Shown one piece after another: positions 326 to 59,167 of a stretch of 64,000 bases of DNA (position 1 is its first letter; the number at the start of each line of letters is the position of its first letter). The translations under genes were made by a program, and so were the position numbers. This stretch comes from Podarcis vaucheri (Eukaryota): NCBI GenBank assembly GCA_965113315.1, contig OZ220374.1; one strand, given 5' to 3'. The notes under the pieces are model-generated. The model was not told where the DNA came from. It saw nothing but the letters and a program-made list of their open reading frames with translations, and did no database searches.

Positions 326-1013
326 TCCCCATGTTGCTCATAATACGTACGTCATGGACTAAAGTGGCACACTCCTGAATTTTTCCACGTGCCCAAATAG
401 ACACAGGTCTTTGTGCCTTTATGGTTTTCATCACGGAAGTGAATAGCCACCATCTCCTTTAAAAATAAGGAATGTTTTGCTACATTTGCTGCTGTCTCAC
501 AAGCCCCTCATATATGCTTGCAATTCAGCAACGGGTGAAACATCTAGTTGGCCTGAGGCTCTGAAAGATAAGTAATGCGGCCTTGGAGAATGGGGATTAA
601 TAATCACCAACTTCCCTTTCCTGAAATAGTTCTGCATGAATACCCTGCTCATGCTAGCTTCCCAGGTAATTAAATCCAGCGCTGGTGCAGTTTATGTGCT
701 CTTTTATCAACACTCTTCATGACCCTGGCTGTTTCCATTAGGCCATTTAAGATCTTGTTTCCCTGTCCTGCCATGAGAAAGCTATCAGCCATTTGCTTGT
801 GCCAGTAAACTTTCAGGCCTCTAATAATGTCGACAGACAAAACCCTGCTAAACATGATGTTGAGATAAAATGGTGATTGACAAGGTTCATATATGCTGGT
901 TTTATAGGGGAGTAATGAACATATCATTTGTCACTAGTGTGCAAAACTCTCTTGCACTCCAGGCATTGGCTGGGCTACTATGACACCATAGCATGTTTAT
1001 GAACATTCACACT

Positions 1014-1191
1014 GGGTGTTAAGGGAGGGGTAGTATCTCTGGTGGAGGACACACCATGCTCCTTCTGGGTACTTTATCCACCTTTGGTCGCCACCCTGCA
1101 CTCAGCTCTCACCTGTGGCTCCTAGAAGCTGTCAGCATGTGACAGCAGCAACACACCAGGAACAGCTCAAGTGGCGGGCTAAACCAGGTGA
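1014..1191 (+). ncRNA. Candidate HDV-like self-cleaving ribozyme (degraded copy) at the element 5' end
   Basis: Element order P1-J1/2-P2-P3-L3(UCC)-P3'-P1'-GG-P4-GCUAA-P2' is discernible. P2 is tcacctg (1109-1115) with caggtga (1185-1191). Confidence 0.6.
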
Positions 1192-1208
1192 TGGGTCTCA
1201 AACCATCT

Positions 1209-1461
1209 GAGCCAGTGTGGTGTAGTGGTTAAGAGCAGTAGACTCGTAATCTGGTGAACCGGGTTTGTGTCTCCGCTCCTCCACATGCAGCTGCTGGGCT
1301 AGTCCTTGGGCCAGTCACACTTCTTTGAAGTCTCTCAGCCCCACTCACCTCACAGAGTGTTTGTTGTGGGGGAGGAAGGGAAAGGAGAATGTTAGCCACT
1401 TTGAGACTCCTTCGGGTAGTGATAAAGCGGGATATCAAATCCAAACTCTTCTTGTCTTCTT
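1209..1461 (+). mobile_element. tRNA-derived SINE (Squam2-like)
   Basis: Head gagccagtgtggtgtagtggttaagagc with A box, degenerate B box, body ccttgggccagtcac, and (TCT)n tail. Confidence 0.8.
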
Positions 1462-1505
<44 letters not shown>

Positions 1506-1780
1506 TTATTTATACCCCACCCATCTGGCTGGGTTTCTTCCCACAGAATATTAATAATAATAAAAAAGCAATAAAACATCAAGCATTAAAAACTTTCCTA
1601 AACAGGACTGCCTTCAGATGTCATCTAAAAGTCTGGTAGTTGTTGTTCTCTTTGACATCTGGTGGGAGGGCATTCCACAGGGCGGGCGCCACTACCGAGA
1701 AGGCCCTCTGCCTGGTTCCCTGTAGCTTCACTTCTCGCAGTGAAGGAACCACCAGAAGGCCCTCGGAGCTGGACCTCAGT
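1462..1780 (-). mobile_element. 5'-truncated L2 LINE 3' end with (TTA)n tail
   Basis: Reverse strand encodes RAFSVVAPALWNALP, typical of the L2 ORF2 C-terminus. (AAT)n run at about 1463-1505. Confidence 0.85.
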
Positions 1781-2177
1781 GACTTCCCCTGCATGTGAAG
1801 ACAGGCTCCAGTGGATTGAACAGATGAGACCCATAGTCTAACAGTCAAGAAGGTGCTTTCTGCACGTGCTGTAGAGGGAACTGAGGGGCAGAGGGGACTC
1901 ATCCACCTGGAAAGGTAGCCCATCTAGGAGAAGGGAAACTCTGATCCTAAACCTCTGCTGCCTTGTGGGGTACATTCGGGAGAAGAATAGGCTAAGGAGT
2001 AAAACCTGCACAAATCCAGACTGGAGTCCCCAAGACTGTTGGATGGCATTTTGTATGCCTCCTTCTGGCAACTTCTGCAGCCAAGTTGGTGCCAAGTATA
2101 TTGCTCTGCTTTCCATTAGACCACATCAGCAAGACCGAGAGGGGGGTCTTGTTGTCTGAGCAGCCCAGGACCTCCAT

Positions 2178-2499
2178 GAAGGAGCGTCTCCACCCCCATC
2201 GTTCTACCCGGACACTGAGGTCCAGCACCGAGGGCCTTCTGGCGGTTCCCTCACTGTGAGAAGCCAAGTTACAGGGAACCAGGCAGAGGGCCTTCTCGGT
2301 AGTGGCGCCCGCCCTGTGGAACGCCCTCCCACCAGATGTCAAAGAGAACAACAACTACCAGGCTTTTAGAAGACATCTGAAGGCAGCCCTGTTTCGGGAA
2401 GCTTTTAATGTTTGATGTATTATAGTATTTTAATATTCTTTTGGAAGCCGCCCAGAGTGGCTGGGGAAGCCCAGCCAGATGTGTGGGGTATAAATAATA

Positions 2500-2540
<41 letters not shown>
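2178..2540 (+). mobile_element. 5'-truncated L2 LINE 3' end with (TTA)n tail
   Basis: Same family as 1462-1780 but opposite orientation. Confidence 0.85.
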
Positions 2541-2542
<2 letters not shown>

Positions 2543-2855
2543 CACATTGCCCAGGCTTGTGCCCTGGGGAAGTCACTTTTGTGCTGCTAACGCAGCAGTT
2601 TGACTTTGCGCCTGGAGACGCACTCCATTGTGTCTCGAAACAGACAGGTGCCAACAACAGCAAGAAAACTGCCAAAGAGGAAGGTTCAATCACATAGCAG
2701 GGGCGGCCTGTGCTCATCCTGCTTCCTTACACCATTATGATTTTCAGCGCCAGAGAGGGGGCACGTTATAGGGTCAGGCTTCAGCAAGCTCTTCAACGCA
2801 ACGTTCCTCTGGCCACCCTCAGCTGATCTTCATGGGGGAAGGCGCAAGTCCAATC

Positions 2856-7500: not shown

Positions 7501-8115
7501 TTCCCTTTCCCAGGCGCAATGTTTTTCCCACCTGAGGGCAAAGCCTCATAAGGCTACACCATGTTTAAAGCATTCCGACAACACTTTAAACACTTCCTCA
7601 TACCCTGCAGCTGTCCCAGTGGGACATCGTGCCAGATCATGGTGGCCATTTTGGGCACTGTGATTTCGGCCCCAATAAAAGCACATCTTTTGGGTTCTTG
7701 TGCAGGTCACGTGACTTGTGCCAGAAGCAGAGCCAAGAAGACGGGACATCCCGGTTTGGGGACTCAGCGCGTTGGAGGGTATACTTCCTGCAAAGCATTA
7801 TGGGAGTTGCAGTTTGCTATGGGTGCCAAGAGTTCTTAGGAGACCTGTTCTCCTCTCAGAGCTATAACTCCAAGAGTTCTCTGTGAAAAGTGGGTTGTCA
7901 AACCACTCTCTGGAAACATGCAATTCACAGAAATCTTTGGGGAAAGCCACGACTGTTTAAAGTGGCATCATAGTGCTTTAAATGTATGGCATGAATGTGT
8001 CCTACGCTGAATTCTACCCAGTGTTCTTTCTGCTGTTGTGAGACACCAATCTTCAGTGCGGCGGCAGCTATTTTCTCTGGAATTCTCTGCCTATTAATAT
8101 TTGTCAGGAGTGTAT

Positions 8116-8723
8116 GGGGTGTTAGGGAATGGGTAATATCTCTGATGGGAGATATCTTGGTGCTCCTCCTGGGGCAGTTTGTCCACCTTTGGTCCCCACC
8201 CTGCACTCAGCTCTCACCTGTGGTTCCCAGAAGCTATCTAGCTTTTGACAGTGGCCACATCCCAGGAAACGGATCTGATTGGGCAGCCGATGGGTCTCAA
8301 ACCCTCAGTGAGTTATGGACTTCCCCTGCATGTGAAGCCAGGCTCTGGCGGATGTAGCAGTGGGTCCAATGATCAAGAAGGCAGTTTCTGTATGTGCTGC
8401 AGAGGGAAGGAAGTGAGGGCCAGATGGGGCCCATCAATCTGGGAATGTTGCCCATCAGAAAACTCTGACACTAAACTTCCACCGCCTTGCAGCTGCACTC
8501 GTCCTTTCTAAAGGCTTTGGGAGTAAGCCCTGAGGAAAAATTCGTACCCACTGCCTTGTAGGACACCTTCAGGAGAAGAAAAGGTTAAGACGCACGCTCT
8601 ACACACATCTGGAACAGTGTCCCTAAGACGGTTGGGTGATGCCTTGTGATTCTTCCACAATTTGACTTCATCCCCATAGGCCCACTCCATTGTATCTCAA
8701 GACAGACAGATGGCAACAACAAC
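8116..8723 (+). mobile_element. Non-autonomous RTE-derived element, copy 2 (internal deletions)
   Basis: Aligns with copy 1 from its first base (ggggtgttaggga). Ends cactccattgtatctcaagacagacagatggcaacaacaac. Confidence 0.75.
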
Positions 8724-9392
8724 ATTAGTCAGAAACCTTCACTGTACAGTTATTGATGCCTGCTTAAAAAAACAAAACACTTTTTGCTTAGGTAAACCAT
8801 GTAATTTTATTATGTACATTTTAAACATGTCTGATTTTATCTATGTTTTAATAAGCTGATTGTGTCTACAATTTTAATGTCTGTTTTTATCCCTTTTTTA
8901 AAACAACCACACAATAGCTTGTATTATTTTATGTAAACCCCTTCATGAAAGACGTTAAAGTATCTCATTGTTCAGTATGTTGTTTGGTTTTCTGGGCAAT
9001 TTTTCTCCTATAATCCATGGCTTATATTAGGTTTGGGGAGGGGTTACATTATATTACTGTATTCTATGCCTTTTAACATTCCGTAAACTTTGAAGTTTTA
9101 GTAAGCTGCCTTGAGGTTTAGGAAAGGGTACAGCATTATTTTAAAAGTAAAAGTTACAGCATGTTTTCTTGGTTGTTTTCAAGGTAAGCGTTGATTGAGG
9201 CATGTTCTCATGCAAAGCATCTGTCTTGACAGAGCAAAAATTACGAATGAATGAAAGCAAGTGCATTGTTCTGATGATGCCTTAAAGGCACATAAATCCT
9301 AACCCTATTCACATTTTAGCCTCATAGACAAATAATCTGTAAATGTAGTCTTATACTTAAACACTCACGCTTTTTTCCTTGTATGTCTTGCC

Positions 9393-9930: not shown

Positions 9931-11159
9931 GTGATCCAGAAGGCACTTGGGAGAATTTCCTCAACAACCCATTCTAACAGAACTCGCCTTAAACTCCCAT
10001 GAGGTTGCAAATGAGTTGGTGGAGAACTGCGTGAAGGGAAACAGAAATATGACACTCCAGGCCCTTGGGACTTTCTCAGACCATACCCCTTACCAGCACT
10101 GCTCTGCATCTTCATCAAGTTTGCCTAGAAGATGTCCCTGAATTGGGATAACGCCCCTTGTTTGCCTGGATGGAGAGGTAGGTATGTGCACATGTATAAA
10201 CCCCTGACTTTCGTGTGGCCCAAATCTAGCCTAGTGTACATAGCAAACATCAATTTCGTCCTCCCAATGTTGTTTATGGACATTGGCCGGAAAAGGTTCC
10301 TATCTGGAAGTTTCTGCGTCTCGGCTGGGATGTCCTGCATTTCTCCACCAGCGGCAGTCAGTGACACAGAGCTCTGTCTGGATCAAAGCTGTTGTGAAGA
10401 TGGGACTCTTCTCTGGAGCTGCCTAAAGTTTTGCAGGTGTTCAGATTTAGGATCCGTGTGCACTTTCCCTTCCTAGTGGTGCATTACCCTTAAAACACCC
10501 AGCCACAAAACCAGGCAGCCTGGATTTGTTGAGCAGAAACACAAGACACCAGGGACTGACGGCTGACTGGGTCTATAGGCAAGCACAGCGCTAACGACAG
10601 ATGTTGTGTCAACTTCGCAGCGCAGGCCTGCCAATGGATTTGCTATTCTAGAAGCGGGCACAAGCAGCCATGCCAAATTTCCTGCGGTTTAGTGATATGA
10701 AGCAGGTTATGAAGCATCAAAACCAGACAGGCTTCCTAATTCAATTCAGTGTGATGGAAATCGGGCTCAGGAGTGGGATGACTTAAGGCTCTAGCCTTAA
10801 GCAAAGATCCTTTCCGGTTCCCCCATAGACTCTTCTCGGTTAACTCATTTTCCTCTTCGTGTGTTCCCATATTCTAATCGAGATATGGATGCTATTCTGT
10901 ATCAAGGATGAATATGGTGCCCTCCAGCTGTTTTTGGACTGCAGCTCGTATCAGCCTCAGGTAGCACGGCCAGCGGTGGTGGAGGAAGTTGACGTTCATC
11001 AATATATGGAGGTCAGCACGATGAGCACCCCTGTTCTGGACTGTAAACCTCTCAAAGGGATGGAGATTCTTATCCACCCCCACTTAACCTCACAGTAAAA
11101 GGAGAATGGCACAGATTCAACCCAATGGCATCTCCAGCTAAAGGATCCCAGAAAGGCTG

Positions 11160-11160
<1 letters not shown>

Positions 11161-11208
<48 letters not shown>

Positions 11209-11307
11209 TTATTTATACCCCGCCCATCTGGCTGAGTTTCCCCAGCCACTCTGGGCAGCTCCCAATCAACTGTTAAAAACAATACAGCATTAAATATTAA
11301 AAACTTA
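11161..11307 (-). mobile_element. L2 3' end with (AAT)n microsatellite, inserted in an older SINE
   Basis: ttatttataccccgcccatctggctgagtttccccagccactctggg, the same terminus as 1462-1780. Confidence 0.8.
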
Positions 11308-34356: not shown

Positions 34357-35743
34357 TAGACTCTTCGTTTCATCTAAAGGAATGCATTTAAGAGCGTATA
34401 GATCCAAGATTTTACCATTCCTCGGCAATACTGAATACAGTTTACTCTACAAAGATCTGCTAAGCACCAAAACAAAAACAGACAGCCTGACTCCTTGATT
34501 AACCATGCAGAGATAAGAAGGGCCAGGAAGGTACTCTGAATGGGGAAATACCACCTGGCCAACAAGCCGCTAAACTATCTTGGTGTGCCTTTTTCAAAAG
34601 TTCAGGGTTCATGTTTGAGGCATATACACTAGAAAATTCTGCATCTAAAGTAGTGCCTGACTTGTTGAAAAGCTGTGACCAGAAATGTCAGACAAGTTAG
34701 TCTGCTCTTTGCTTGTTGACTTATTTGTGGCTTAGACAAATTGTCGTCAAAGCTGATTTGCAGCAGCTGTTTACATTGACTGAATATAAAATTTAAGGCC
34801 TATGCTTAGAGCTGCAAAATCACAGGGCTGCAAGGAGCCGCAAATCATCTAGTTCATCCCTCTACTTTAGGTACACACTGCAGTTTAATCTCCTACTAAT
34901 TAACACACTACTGCCACATTATAGCTTGCCACTGGCGACAGAGCAGCTGCACACAAGTTATACCATGCCAAGTGCCTACAGACACAAAATAGTTTAGGAA
35001 AAGCAATCTAGATGTCATTGCTCTATAGGGTGAAAGTGGTGAAAAACCCCCGACTAGGTAACTTGGTAATATGACCATATGTAGGAAAGAACCTCTTAAT
35101 TAAAACTGAACCAAATTCCACAAAACTCTTCATTGGGCAGAAACTGGCCCAATAATCATAACCACATTACACGTTTCATTTCTTATGTCTAGTTAATTGA
35201 AGGCTTTGGTTGCACATCTGATGATAATCCATGATATATTAAGCTTCTGTGGCTAGTATAGCAGGTGGAAAATAGCTATAGGAGAAAGCTACATAAGCAG
35301 AATGGCCATCTTGGTCCATGTTTTGTGACAAAGATCTCATTTAAAATTTTTAACTGATATACATTTTGTATGAATAAAGCAACAATCTGGCCACTTCTGC
35401 TTCACATATCTGTTATTAAAGGCAACTAAGCTGTCTGATCACAACAGAAAAGCAACCCCTTTGTAAACAGTTAAACTGCTAGAAATATATTCTACACCCC
35501 CTTGGGAGTCTGTTTTCAGATTGCACACTGACCCTTTGGGAGAAGAGGAACATGGAAGTTCAAAGAAGAAACGGGGCGACACAGAATACAGAGGAATCTC
35601 ACATTCATAATAAACAATGGGGGTTACTCTTCCTTGCCCGGAAGTTTGAATTTCTAAGTGCCACATTAACAGTGGCAGCCTAGAACCCACAATCAGCCTC
35701 TGAAACAAAAGGACAAAAATGAAACTTCTACACAAAGAGGTAC

Positions 35744-35981
35744 CTGTCAGAGAGTGCACCAGTTCAGATGTCTCCACATCATACAGGTTTGCTGTTCTAT
35801 CCCATGAAGCTGTCACAGCTTGCTTCCCTCCAACTAGCCAATCAGCTGCTATGACTACACCTTGGTGGCTTTTTAGGAAAGTTAAAGGAGCCCGGATGGT
35901 GGGACAATCACTAGAACCATCTCCATCTCCTTCAGGTTCATCTTTATCAGAGAACTCAACTTCATCTTCTCCAGACATTTG
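35744..35981 (-). CDS. WDR37: WDR37 coding exon 9 ([15 protein letters not shown]...ELVHSLT, 238 nt)
   Basis: Overlaps ORF 35439..35978; acidic loop plus WD40 repeat. Acceptor AACAG, donor GTACCT. Confidence 0.96.
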
Positions 35982-37387: not shown

Positions 37388-37458
37388 CTGCAGAGAAAGT
37401 TGAAAGAATATGGAAATATAGTAGATAATTCAGATGTCACACTCCCGATACTCTAAAC

Positions 37459-37596
37459 TAGCCTTTCTCAACCTGTGGGTCCCCAGATGTTATTGAACTA
37501 CAACTCCCATCACCCCTAGCTAGCAAGGCCAGAGCTCAGGGATGATGGGAGTTGTAGTCCAACAACATCTGGGGACCCAAAGGTTGAGAACCGCTG
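37459..37596. mobile_element. Palindromic hAT (Charlie-like) MITE
   Basis: Long inverted arms; perfect 8-bp TSD ctctaaac. Confidence 0.88.
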
Positions 37597-38119
37597 CTCT
37601 AAACTATGGTACAGAGGATTTGGAACAAGTTGTGAGTTAGAGTGCTTCCTGTCCCACCAGTCTCCTTTCCTTTTCTGCAGTCCTTGATGCAAAACCTCTT
37701 GGTTTCCTCAAACCATGGTTTACCCTAATGTATGAACAGGCAAACAGTTTTAAGCAATCTCTCCAAACTGAAGTTTTAAACAATGGTTTGATCCTAGTTT
37801 ACAAAACTGGCTTGCTCAAACTATAATTTGCTGGTTTGCACATCAAGGTCAAATGGTGTTTGAGGAACCCAGGTAAGAGGTGGGAGAAGGAAAGTTTGAA
37901 CTTGTTCTCACTGCTTCAAACCAAAGAGGATCAGTGTTAAGGTCATTGCATTTTTACCATTTTGGCTCAAATGCCTAAGTTACTTATGCATAAATAATAC
38001 TTACTTTTGAACAAATACTGCTGCTGACCACTTAGTTAACATTCAGCCTAAATTAAATGTTTCATTATTTGGGGACTATACAATGTTCAATTAAGCAAAG
38101 AGAATGAAGCCAGCATGTT

Positions 38120-42243: not shown

Positions 42244-42379
42244 CAGTGTTTCCCAAACTTGGGTCTCCAGCTGTTTTTGGACTACAACTCCCATCATTCC
42301 TAGATAGCAGGACCAGTGGTCAGGGATGCTGGGAATTGTAGTCCAAAAACAGCTGGAGGCCCAAGTTTGGGAAACACTG
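42244..42379. mobile_element. Palindromic hAT-like MITE
   Basis: TIRs cagtgtttcccaaacttggg / cccaagtttgggaaacactg, with near-perfect arms. Confidence 0.85.
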
Positions 42380-56915: not shown

Positions 56916-57388
56916 CCTGCATGCAAAGACAGGCTCTAGTAAATTGAGTGGACAAGACCAATAGTGGGTCTGATGGTCAAGAAGGCAGCTTCTGGGAAGT
57001 GAGAGGTTGGTAGAGCTCATCAGCCAAGGAAGGTAGCCCATCTAGGAGAAGCAAAACTCTGCTCCCAAACTCGTGCTGCCTTGGGAGATATCCTTGGTAG
57101 AAGAAAATGCTAAGGAGCAAATCCTTGCCAAATCTGGAGTGCAGTTCCTAAAGCAGTTGGGTGGCATCTTGTATGCCTCCTTCCCACAACTTCTGCAGCC
57201 AAGCTGGTGCCGAACGTATTGCTCGACTTTCCATCAGCAAGGGCCAGGGGGTCTTGCCATCTGGGAAGTCCAAGACCTCCATACTCACTGCCCAGGCTTC
57301 TTCCCCAGGAAGGTCAATTTGGTGCTGCTAATGCAGCAGTTTGACTTCACCCCTGGAGATGTACTCCATAGTCTCTCGAGACAGATGA
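56916..57388 (+). mobile_element. Non-autonomous RTE-derived element, copy 3 (5'-truncated; in the WDR37 intron upstream of the first coding exon, antisense)
   Basis: Colinear with 1788-2177 plus 2541-2650, without the L2 insertion. Ends actccatagtctctcgagacagatg. Confidence 0.75.
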
Positions 57389-59167
57389 GTGAGAACCAGA
57401 GAAGGGCCATAGCAGAGCACAGAGACATACGCAATGTGGATGCACCCAGCCCCACCTCAATTGATTATAGACCTGTGAGGATAAATACACAAGTACAGAT
57501 GTAGTTGTAATCCAAAGTATGCACATTCACTTGCAGGTAAGCATAGCGTGAACTGGATACATGGGATCTCTCTGCACCCCACTAGCTAGGCCATACTGAT
57601 CAAAATACAGTGTCAAAAGAACATAATCAGATGATTCAAGACAATAGGTAAATGTTAACTATAATATTACATTGTAGACAGGAATCTGCAGGAATCTATA
57701 CAAACATCCCTGTGCGCATAAGTGAAAATCACAAAAGGGGGAACACCCTCTAAACACCCATTTTTTCCTGCTCTCTAGCTCTCTTCAATCCAGACCGAAA
57801 TATCTACAGTGAAGCTCTGGGGCTGGCTGGAAGGTGTGCACTTCAGCTGTTAGGTGTGGAGGCTGAGCAACCTAAACAAAGCCTTGCTGTGCCTCTGGTC
57901 TTTTGGGGGCTTTCTGTGCCCCCAATGACATCCTCTTCTGGCTCCAGGGAGAGTCTCCTTGCAAGCCCTGAGGACTTTCCCCCATTTCCTGGTACGTACG
58001 TATGTATTTCCCAGTGCCATGCAGTCGCACACAAGTCAACTGTGCATTAAGTGGGATGACGCCTGTACTCAAGTTCTGTTGGGAGTACTCTCACATTCAT
58101 AGGCCAAAAGCTGCAATTGTAGCCTTTCCATGGCAACATATGAAACTATCAGGTCACCTAACATAGGTCTGGTTTCTGTAAACCACTGTTGATGAACTTG
58201 ATTGTGTTTTTTAATGTCCCCTTCATGTGTTGCAACTGTTTTGCATGAGGAAGTCAGATCAAGGTTTGACTACACATTTCAACTATATTCATTTGAACCA
58301 GTGTTGCACAAATGATATTTTTAAAGCTATTTGCTAATATAATGGGGCAGCAACTGATGACTCAAACTCAAAACGGCATTATGGCAAAGGTAACATTACA
58401 CTTGAGTATATAAGAACTAGTTTGCTAAGTTGCAAACAATGCTCCCTTAAATGCCCCAAGCATAAAATTTTGCAACAGTGATAAATCAGGTCCACAGCAG
58501 AAAAATGACTTGCCTTAAGTTATTCACATCCTAACAAATTATCCAATAAAAGGTGGGAGAGATATAAACTATTCTACAATGGCAAAGAGACAACTATACA
58601 ATTTTTTAATACTATTATTCTAGTATCCGAATTATCCTTTACAGAGCATGTTTTATACCTTTAAATAAAACACACAACATCTACTTTTTATTGAATGTAT
58701 CAGATTATTTCTGATTATTTATTTCTGGAAGATAAAATGTAAAACAAATTATCATTTAATTGTCAAAGATGAAACAAGAATAGCAAGCATAAAAGATCAG
58801 GCAACAATGTTACAAGGTCCCCCCAATAAGTCACCTACTTTAGCAATAGTTGGTATTCCTAATATGCTTACTTGTCTGATCTTAAGCAATCAAGACGAGT
58901 TGTGTAATGAAAGAAAAAAATCCCTCGGGCATTCATGTTTCTGAAAGCCAAGAGACAATATCTCTTTCAGGAAATATCAGAATGTGGAAAGAATTACTAA
59001 AGCAGTGTGCTTCCTTTTTTGTCCATTTAAAATGACTTAGGTTTGAGGGAGGGAGACTGGCAGAGCAAGTATAAATGCAAAAGCAAGCTCCCCACCCCTT
59101 TCTGCTCTTTCTTCTTTTTAACAAACACACACACAGAGAAGTTAACAGTTAAGATTTTCAGAGGGCT

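Follow-up and report, generated by a model that had tools for sequence, protein, structure and literature searches.

Known HDV-like ribozymes vary in J1/2 and in P4, while L3, the loop from which the active site is built, is taken to have an invariant length of 7–8 bases. In the genomic HDV ribozyme the eighth L3 base is flipped out and dispensable. [quoted passage not shown] In retrotransposons, cleavage by HDV-like ribozymes is described, in the portions of two accounts available to us, as releasing the element RNA from the host co-transcript (PMC6765202, PMC3774820). As far as the accessible parts of the respective reports go, the ribozymes of the R2, L1Tc/NARTc, and SIDER elements resemble the predicted one discussed below in being 5'-terminal, in having the cleavage site at the element end, in having a conserved U and G in L3, and in being used by internally deleted, non-autonomous derivatives (PMC3774820, PMC4035085, PMC3185411); they differ in L3, for which the same partially available sources report spacing variants, in R2 of the jewel wasp, and no helix (PMC3774820, PMC4035085). 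Like the element studied here, the bipartite non-autonomous RTE LINEs of Kojima (2018) are non-coding, carry the RTE 5'-UTR domain, are short in their 3' part, and end in a microsatellite, according to the available portion of that paper; such LINEs usually retain the original 5' end, and several RTEs are predicted there to bear ribozymes (PMC5786205). The same portion gives no ribozyme structure, and the ribozyme motifs for which we searched are absent from its supplement.

The window analyzed here is a stretch of 64,000 nucleotides from Podarcis vaucheri (contig OZ220374.1 of assembly GCA_965113315.1), read on one strand. We consider it highly probable that its first kilobases preserve a conserved side helix, inserted in L3 of a predicted HDV-like ribozyme that heads an RTE-type retroelement, and that the copy in question is a decayed, likely inactive member of its family. 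A natural, covarying L3 helix would mean a third tolerated branch point in HDV-like ribozymes, and, if this reading is true, descriptors of fixed length as well as the Rfam models miss retrotransposon ribozymes common to several deep endonuclease-reverse transcriptase (RT) lineages.

The predicted ribozyme and its L3 hairpin in the window and the genome family

The region forms the start of an interspersed repeat, for which a first look at the 1.6-Gb genome gave 3082 candidates. Uninterrupted copies measure about 670–730 nt, lack coding capacity, and terminate in (CAA)n, with 5' truncation being frequent; the copies in the window are given in Table 1 together with the parts of the ribozyme, and copy 1 is split by later insertions at about 1205–1781 and 2179–2540. 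Directly behind the ribozyme, at 1205–1462, lies a SINE with a tRNA-like head, whose start resembles by eye that of SINE2-2_ACar in the accessible part of the PMC5786205 supplement, a hint of a squamate-like genome, and a repeat with a (TAA)n end occupies 1463–1781, 2213–2540, and 11157–11306, two insertions of opposite orientation (222-nt arms, 91% complementary) lying in copy 1. MITE-like short elements with terminal inverted arms of 58–70 nt, 20 nt apart, are found at 37448–37607 and 42244–42379, and several related copies exist. On the minus strand, at 35439–35978, there is an exon-like stretch of a WD40-repeat gene, presumably WDR37, which has weak Pfam matches and lies on the strand opposite to the element copies.

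Table 1. Coordinates of the element copies and of the predicted ribozyme parts in the window
Feature	Positions	Strand	Remarks
Copy 1 (non-autonomous RTE-type retroelement)	1013–2662	+	5'-truncated by ~9 nt; (CAA)n tail
Second GGGGTGT repeat	1013–1019	+	T in place of the first G in this copy; predicted to form the base of the J1/2 helix, a mere stand-in for the P1 5' strand
Peripheral domain in J1/2, predicted to form a long, branched, P1.2-like stem	1013–1105	+	sequences folded singly; in 23 loci, z between +0.5 and −4.3
P2 5' strand	1108–1116	+	family alignment, two-sided changes
P3 5' strand GGC	1117–1119	+	fixed by the descriptor, so a covariation test is impossible
L3 core UCCUAGA + A	1120–1127	+	equivalents of U20, C21–C22 (P1.1 5' side), and G25 at canonical spacing
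Inserted hairpin	1128–1146	+	6-bp family stem 1128–1133/1141–1146; seventh pair 1134–1140 through CpG decay only
P3 3' strand	1148–1150	+	GCC in the family (C in 49/54 copies), GCA in the window copy: one broken pair
P1 3' strand	1151–1157	+	ACACCCC in the family; A at 1155 in the window copy
P1.1 3' side	1158–1159	+	ancestrally GG; 1158 is A in the window copy via CpG decay
P4 hairpin	1163–1177	+	damaged in the window copy, 3/5 pairs
J4/2 GCUAA	1178–1182	+	C1179 is the C75 equivalent
P2 3' strand	1183–1191	+	one bulged C; followed by a ~12-nt deletion in the window copy
Conserved RTE 5'-UTR domain	1912–1951	+	likeness judged by eye against the available part of the PMC5786205 supplement
Copy 2	8107–8724	+	begins at the first repeat; probable target-site duplication; J4/2 and P2 3' strand deleted
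Copy 3	56916–57390	+	5'-truncated; without the ribozyme part

The family alignment consists of 54 copies, obtained from 84 fetched loci and the window after removal of duplicates and of matches that did not span the region; most of them were picked because they resembled either the window copy or locus L016 (loci are designated by L and a number), so that the counts given below are biased. The copies diverge on average by 7.6% from their majority outside CpG sites, the CpGs themselves being heavily decayed, and no young copies were found, the best non-self matches being 90–91% identical among the best 40 of about 3000 candidates scored per search, with 30 fetched.

In the column majority of this alignment all elements of an HDV-like ribozyme are present, and in order. 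The equivalents of U20, G25, and C75 are kept in 52, 52, and 53 of the 54 copies, respectively, none of which had been chosen by the descriptor introduced below, and the window copy has all three. P3 and P1.1 are complementary in the family majority if CpG decay is allowed for (in the metagenome loci these strands are fixed by the descriptor), and P1.1 is intact in 12 of the 54 copies. The sequence-only reading had put forward a putative HDV-like ribozyme at this place, and the computation supports it as a prediction through the presence of P2, P4, an upstream P1 partner, and the U20, G25, and C75 equivalents. Where this fold departs from the canonical one is L3, which has 28 nt in the window and 26–29 nt (a 7-nt core plus 19–22 nt) in 25 metagenome matches that form P2, as opposed to 7–8 unpaired bases; this excludes the canonical HDV descriptor, but not the HDV mechanism. 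The Rfam models gave no gathering match in the window, no HDV-type match at E ≤ 10 in positions 900–1300, and 13 relative loci likewise stayed without one at E ≤ 1. An intact core, with the second repeat scored as P1, is found in 6 of the 54 genome copies. The window copy keeps 5/7 pairs of P1, 2/3 of P3, 1/2 of P1.1, and 3/5 of P4, and has lost G1; because its true P1 5' strand is missing and P3, P1, and P1.1 are broken, it is probably an inactive fossil.

The stem that had been claimed inside L3, GCTGTCA (1128–1134) with TGACAGC (1140–1146), is borne out, the arms being exact reverse complements around a 5-nt loop, and the span between the P3 strands, put at about 28 nt, indeed amounts to 28 nt (1120–1147), between GGC at 1117–1119 and the P3 3' position at 1148–1150. 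Both the MFE and the centroid fold of 1005–1210 include the stem, with a pair probability of 0.74 in the window copy, while this 206-nt region as a whole folds no better than shuffles (z 0.17). Taken alone, apart from its relatives, the stem is weak evidence; a perfect 7-bp hairpin is present in 25 of the 2279 (1.1%) non-overlapping 28-nt stretches of the window. The seven pairs are there in the window copy, but the stem of the family has six, closing a 7-nt loop, AGCAUGC, which holds a self-complementary hexamer; the seventh pair, A1134–U1140, occurs in 27 of the 54 copies and is a product of CpG decay, since the dinucleotide at 1140/1141 shows the pattern of a decayed CpG (TG in 25 copies, CA in 14, CG in 8, AG in 4, others in 3). 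Copy 2, in which the hairpin had been called degraded, is indeed damaged, but mainly through the loss of J4/2 and of the P2 3' strand, and retains 5/6 hairpin pairs (arms 8233–8238 and 8247–8252). Nor is the hairpin missing from the family consensus, as 5 or 6 of its 6 pairs are kept in 45 of the 54 copies; its covariation within the genome family is not above that of shuffles (48 copies; 63/500 shuffles).

One could therefore read the hairpin as a chance palindrome of this locus or of this family, structurally meaningless, a view to which the frequency of such stems in the window, the lack of covariation among the genome copies, and the origin of the seventh pair in decay would all lend themselves. 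We hold it to be extremely improbable, as it is contradicted by the metagenome relatives, in which each of the 25 P2-forming matches has such a hairpin while the sequences of the arms differ.

Metagenome relatives, covariation, and competing folds

These relatives were sought with a descriptor whose only fixed parts were the two strands of P3, a portion of the L3 core, the P1 3' strand, P1.1, and J4/2; it left the insert free at 12–40 nt and specified neither P2, nor the upstream P1 strand, nor the hairpin. Conservation of P3, the P1 3' strand, P1.1, and J4/2 in the loci so found is thus circular, and hairpin-less relatives were excluded, an insert of at least 12 bases being required. The search gave 41 matches in 40 loci. 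P2 forms with 6–12 pairs in 25 of the 41 (24 loci); 21 of these 25 have a P1 partner of 6–7 pairs upstream, and all 25 have an insert hairpin of 5–7 bp, flanked in 23 by exactly one base on either side. The remaining 16 matches have at most four hairpin pairs; L100, L101, L109, and L122 are damaged family members, and the other 12 look like chance. One of these 12 chance-like loci scored E 0.009 with the covariance model, because the descriptor words are in it. A relaxed descriptor found 1 viral and 8 prokaryotic matches, none of them supported by the model (best E 0.21), and the phage records gave no match.

Some features of individual relatives may be recorded here. A bulged base beside the top P2 pair (1183–1185 in the window) occurs in 23 of the 25 P2-forming metagenome matches and is absent in L095 and L120. 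In L100 (3987–4073), a single copy, the place of the hairpin is taken by a direct 12-nt duplicate of the P3 3'–P1 3'–GG segment, and in L117 (3533–4168) two ribozyme-bearing element copies stand head to head, in opposite orientation, on one contig, where an assembly artefact is possible.

For the analysis of covariation near-duplicates were dropped, leaving 21 sequences, namely 3 genome copies and 18 metagenome loci. Over the whole fold 93.3% of the cells are paired, and two-sided changes occur at 18 of 26 pairs (0/500 shuffles; slid controls 28–44%), the shuffle control ignoring the relatedness among the sequences; P2 has such changes at 10 of 11 pairs and P4 at 4 of 5. The hairpin alone is paired in 92.4% of the cells and has two-sided changes at 4 of 5 pairs, in 22 cells, the number of double-changed pairs not being above shuffles (249/500). 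On a rough tree these changes correspond to about three or four independent events, parsimony placing 2–4 changes on either side of each of the four variable pairs; alignment A2 places the hairpin of L111 one column off, which lowers the counts. The insert follows the seven canonical L3 bases, with A and G flanking it, and its pairing is kept through two-sided changes; in pseudoknot-free ensembles the hairpin has a probability below 0.5 in 6 of the 18 relatives.

The chief alternative to the fold with the inserted hairpin is a register with a canonical 8-nt L3, in which P3 would be closed by the hairpin bases 1128–1130, the extra bases would lie between P3 and P1, the hairpin would be inactive or transient, and the two registers would form a switch. 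This register does pair in 60 of 63 cells (95.2%; 21 sequences), and eight is the length of L3 in genomic HDV according to the available part of 10.1101/2022.09.22.508989; yet it has no two-sided change and many wobbles, it breaks in L111 and L122, where the hairpin persists (with 7 bp in L111 and with only the 3 outer pairs in L122), it sacrifices a stem whose predicted energy is −3 to −9 kcal/mol, and it separates P3 from P1 by about 20 nt, whereas in known examples, Agam-2-1 among them, no bases intervene. We judge this alternative to be distinctly improbable, and the 8-nt register may be a relic of the origin of the insert or a folding intermediate. A further register, shifted by +3 so that the 5' arm of the hairpin lies over the P3 3' strand, was rejected as the main fold: it pairs in 81.9% of the cells, has no two-sided change, and has a probability of at most 0.04 in 17 of 18 relatives and of 0.30 in L099.

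A more radical possibility is the helix of UGUGGC with GCCACA, a fold without a pseudoknot that the sequence-only reading had itself raised against its proposal; the RNA would then not be a ribozyme, and the conserved 5' end would be a promoter or a protein-binding signal. In L041, L096, L104, and L115 an extended form of this helix reaches pair probabilities of 0.6–0.9 under pseudoknot-free folding, and the L1Tc 5' end is described, in the part of the source available, as promoter and ribozyme both (PMC3383444). The helix has no two-sided change, however, in set opposition to P2, with which it competes and which covaries at 10 of its 11 pairs; its outer pairs are broken in 9 and 6 of the 21 sequences, and the ends of the element coincide with the predicted cut site. 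On the computational evidence, we regard this reading as very unlikely and retain the pseudoknotted fold with the inserted hairpin.

The retroelement, its 5' end, and a proposed mode of action

That the element is of RTE type had been guessed at the outset, and the guess fits both the endonuclease-RT ORFs downstream in relatives and the likeness to the RTE 5'-UTR domain. Such an ORF is matched downstream in 13 of the 28 family loci, 3 of which are the queries themselves, and 9 of the other 15 loci have no more than 506 bases downstream. The ORFs form four groups that are about 27–31% identical to one another in pairwise comparison; those of L104, L086, and L096 (1017–1096 aa; 3/3 scanned) matched only Exo_endo_phos, Exo_endo_phos_2, and RVT_1, with no RNase H among the matches, and the RT ORFs have weak PDB matches to L1 and R2 proteins. 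The 3' tail of the genome copies is (CAA)n; L086 and L096 end in (GATA)n and (GAA)n. The window element is best read, on these sequence features, as an internally deleted, non-autonomous RTE-type LINE. An autonomous partner was not found, the two RT-coding families of the genome (20 fetched stretches) being without the ribozyme or the tail. L138–L149 represent a broken RT-coding family of greater age, which shares about 50% identity with the L104 RT and has (GAA)n tails, and are not the partner of the window element; L150–L157 represent a young RT-coding family, which we take to be BovB-like, with intact 1036-aa ORFs, a sharp 5' end, and no match to the ribozyme model.

The 5' end of the element lies beyond that of the window copy. 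Homology sets in with a first GGGGTGTAT repeat, 9 nt upstream of 1013; of the 54 genome copies, 32 have a G at −9 and 2 have one at −10. Where a tail could be located, the candidate target-site duplications of five copies end at −9 and those of two at −8, and the others end elsewhere or do not convince. The second repeat is predicted, in many relatives, to pair into the base of the long J1/2 helix. Because homology and duplications end at the first repeat and the second pairs into J1/2, the first is likely the P1 5' strand with the cleavage site, which would be expected at 1004–1012 and is absent from the window copy. In L086, a full-length element, an 11-nt target-site duplication ends exactly at the predicted G1 of P1, and in L096 a degenerate one ends one base earlier; in L104 a duplication was looked for and none was seen. 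The doubled GGGGTGT(AT) 5' end is found in the region corresponding to 1004–1019 of the window and in L092, L104, L113, L115, L118, and L119, and in copies truncated at the 5' end the second repeat could stand in as a spare P1 strand; L010 appears to start at it.

RNA reads (three raw runs and one contig set), compared with L021 at 82% likeness, gave a low depth that came from other copies and no accumulation of read starts, which says nothing either way, as these libraries do not mark 5'-OH ends. At L021:1489–1704 first mates fell on the plus strand about 3–4 times as often as on the minus strand in two bulk runs, these reads, too, coming from other copies; if the libraries were stranded as usual, the transcribed copies would be mostly antisense, and selection against intronic sense self-cleavers could underlie this.

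In the mode of action that we propose, the element RNA would be transcribed from upstream host promoters, and the nested double pseudoknot would cut immediately ahead of the G that opens the first GGGGUGU repeat, thereby defining the RNA's 5' terminus; the RNA, once freed, would be copied in trans by the RTE endonuclease-reverse transcriptase. The insert would zip early into its own stem, returning the P3 3' strand beside the L3 core and keeping P3 adjacent to P1, and would point outward, off the active site, where genomic HDV has its eighth L3 base. It is likely tolerated by catalysis rather than required, and may have been retained because it helps folding or offers a docking surface; the retention of the hairpin across deep lineages suggests a role in folding or binding. 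A more specific version, in which the hairpin is a docking module that gates self-cleavage, either through a kissing loop between RNAs or through an RTE protein, seems to us rather unlikely. Self-complementary loop hexamers are indeed present, namely GCAUGC in the window family and L104, GUGCAC in L086, L111, and L122, and CACGUG in L119; they are absent in one lineage (L095, L096, L099, L118), and the palindrome test, made post hoc on related sequences, without L052, and with no stem-loop split for L111 and L115, gave a P of about 0.01. The intact relatives and the known hairpin-less comparator provide usable test constructs, and the insertion site beside the active site may be of interest for engineered switches, as may the 5' module for retrotransposon-based gene writing.

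Comparison with described ribozymes

The L3 hairpin was not found described in the text of the literature searched on HDV-like variants and on Vingi, drawn structures being outside the scope of that search. Vingi-type 5' ends may carry a similar insert. We think it doubtful, although by no means far-fetched, that the hairpin has already been drawn in an earlier publication. Our verdict, reached from sequence comparison, is that it is probably a new structural variant of HDV-like ribozymes, real and family-wide, and seen here in a fossil copy.

The fungal HDV variants of Li and Breaker (2017) are a parallel in that they are active and escaped earlier descriptors by breaking a structural rule; they differ in the rules concerned, since in them P4 has a loop E motif, the cut site is formed with a C-G pair, and an extra base separates P2 from P3, and the accessible part of that report has no L3 hairpin (PMC5640933). 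The CPEB3 ribozyme likewise has a self-complementary stretch in the L3 region that is able to pair two molecules, but there, according to the available part of the source, it is a 4-nt palindrome within the 7-nt loop itself, competing with P1.1 (10.1101/2022.09.22.508989), whereas here the palindrome belongs to the loop of the additional hairpin and is confined to some lineages.

With drz-Agam-2-1, as presented in the portion of the paper at hand, the family shares a long structured J1/2 and an extended P2 (12 bp there, 10–12 in most relatives here), as well as the core words, that is, UCCACG in L3, GG-UAAC after P1, and GCUAA in J4/2 (Webb et al. 2016, PMC4908430), which by-eye comparison finds nearly unchanged in L097, L099, L104, and L118. 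As drz-Agam-2-1 is fast and has this layout without the insert, the hairpin would appear to be dispensable for this chemistry in general. The mosquito ribozyme differs, within the same portion, in its plain 7-nt L3 and its very long P4 (PMC4908430); the window family has instead an L3 insert of 19–22 nt, built as A, hairpin, and G, a short P4 of 5 bp, and a bulge at the top of P2, and several of its members also have the doubled GGGGUGU at the 5' end.
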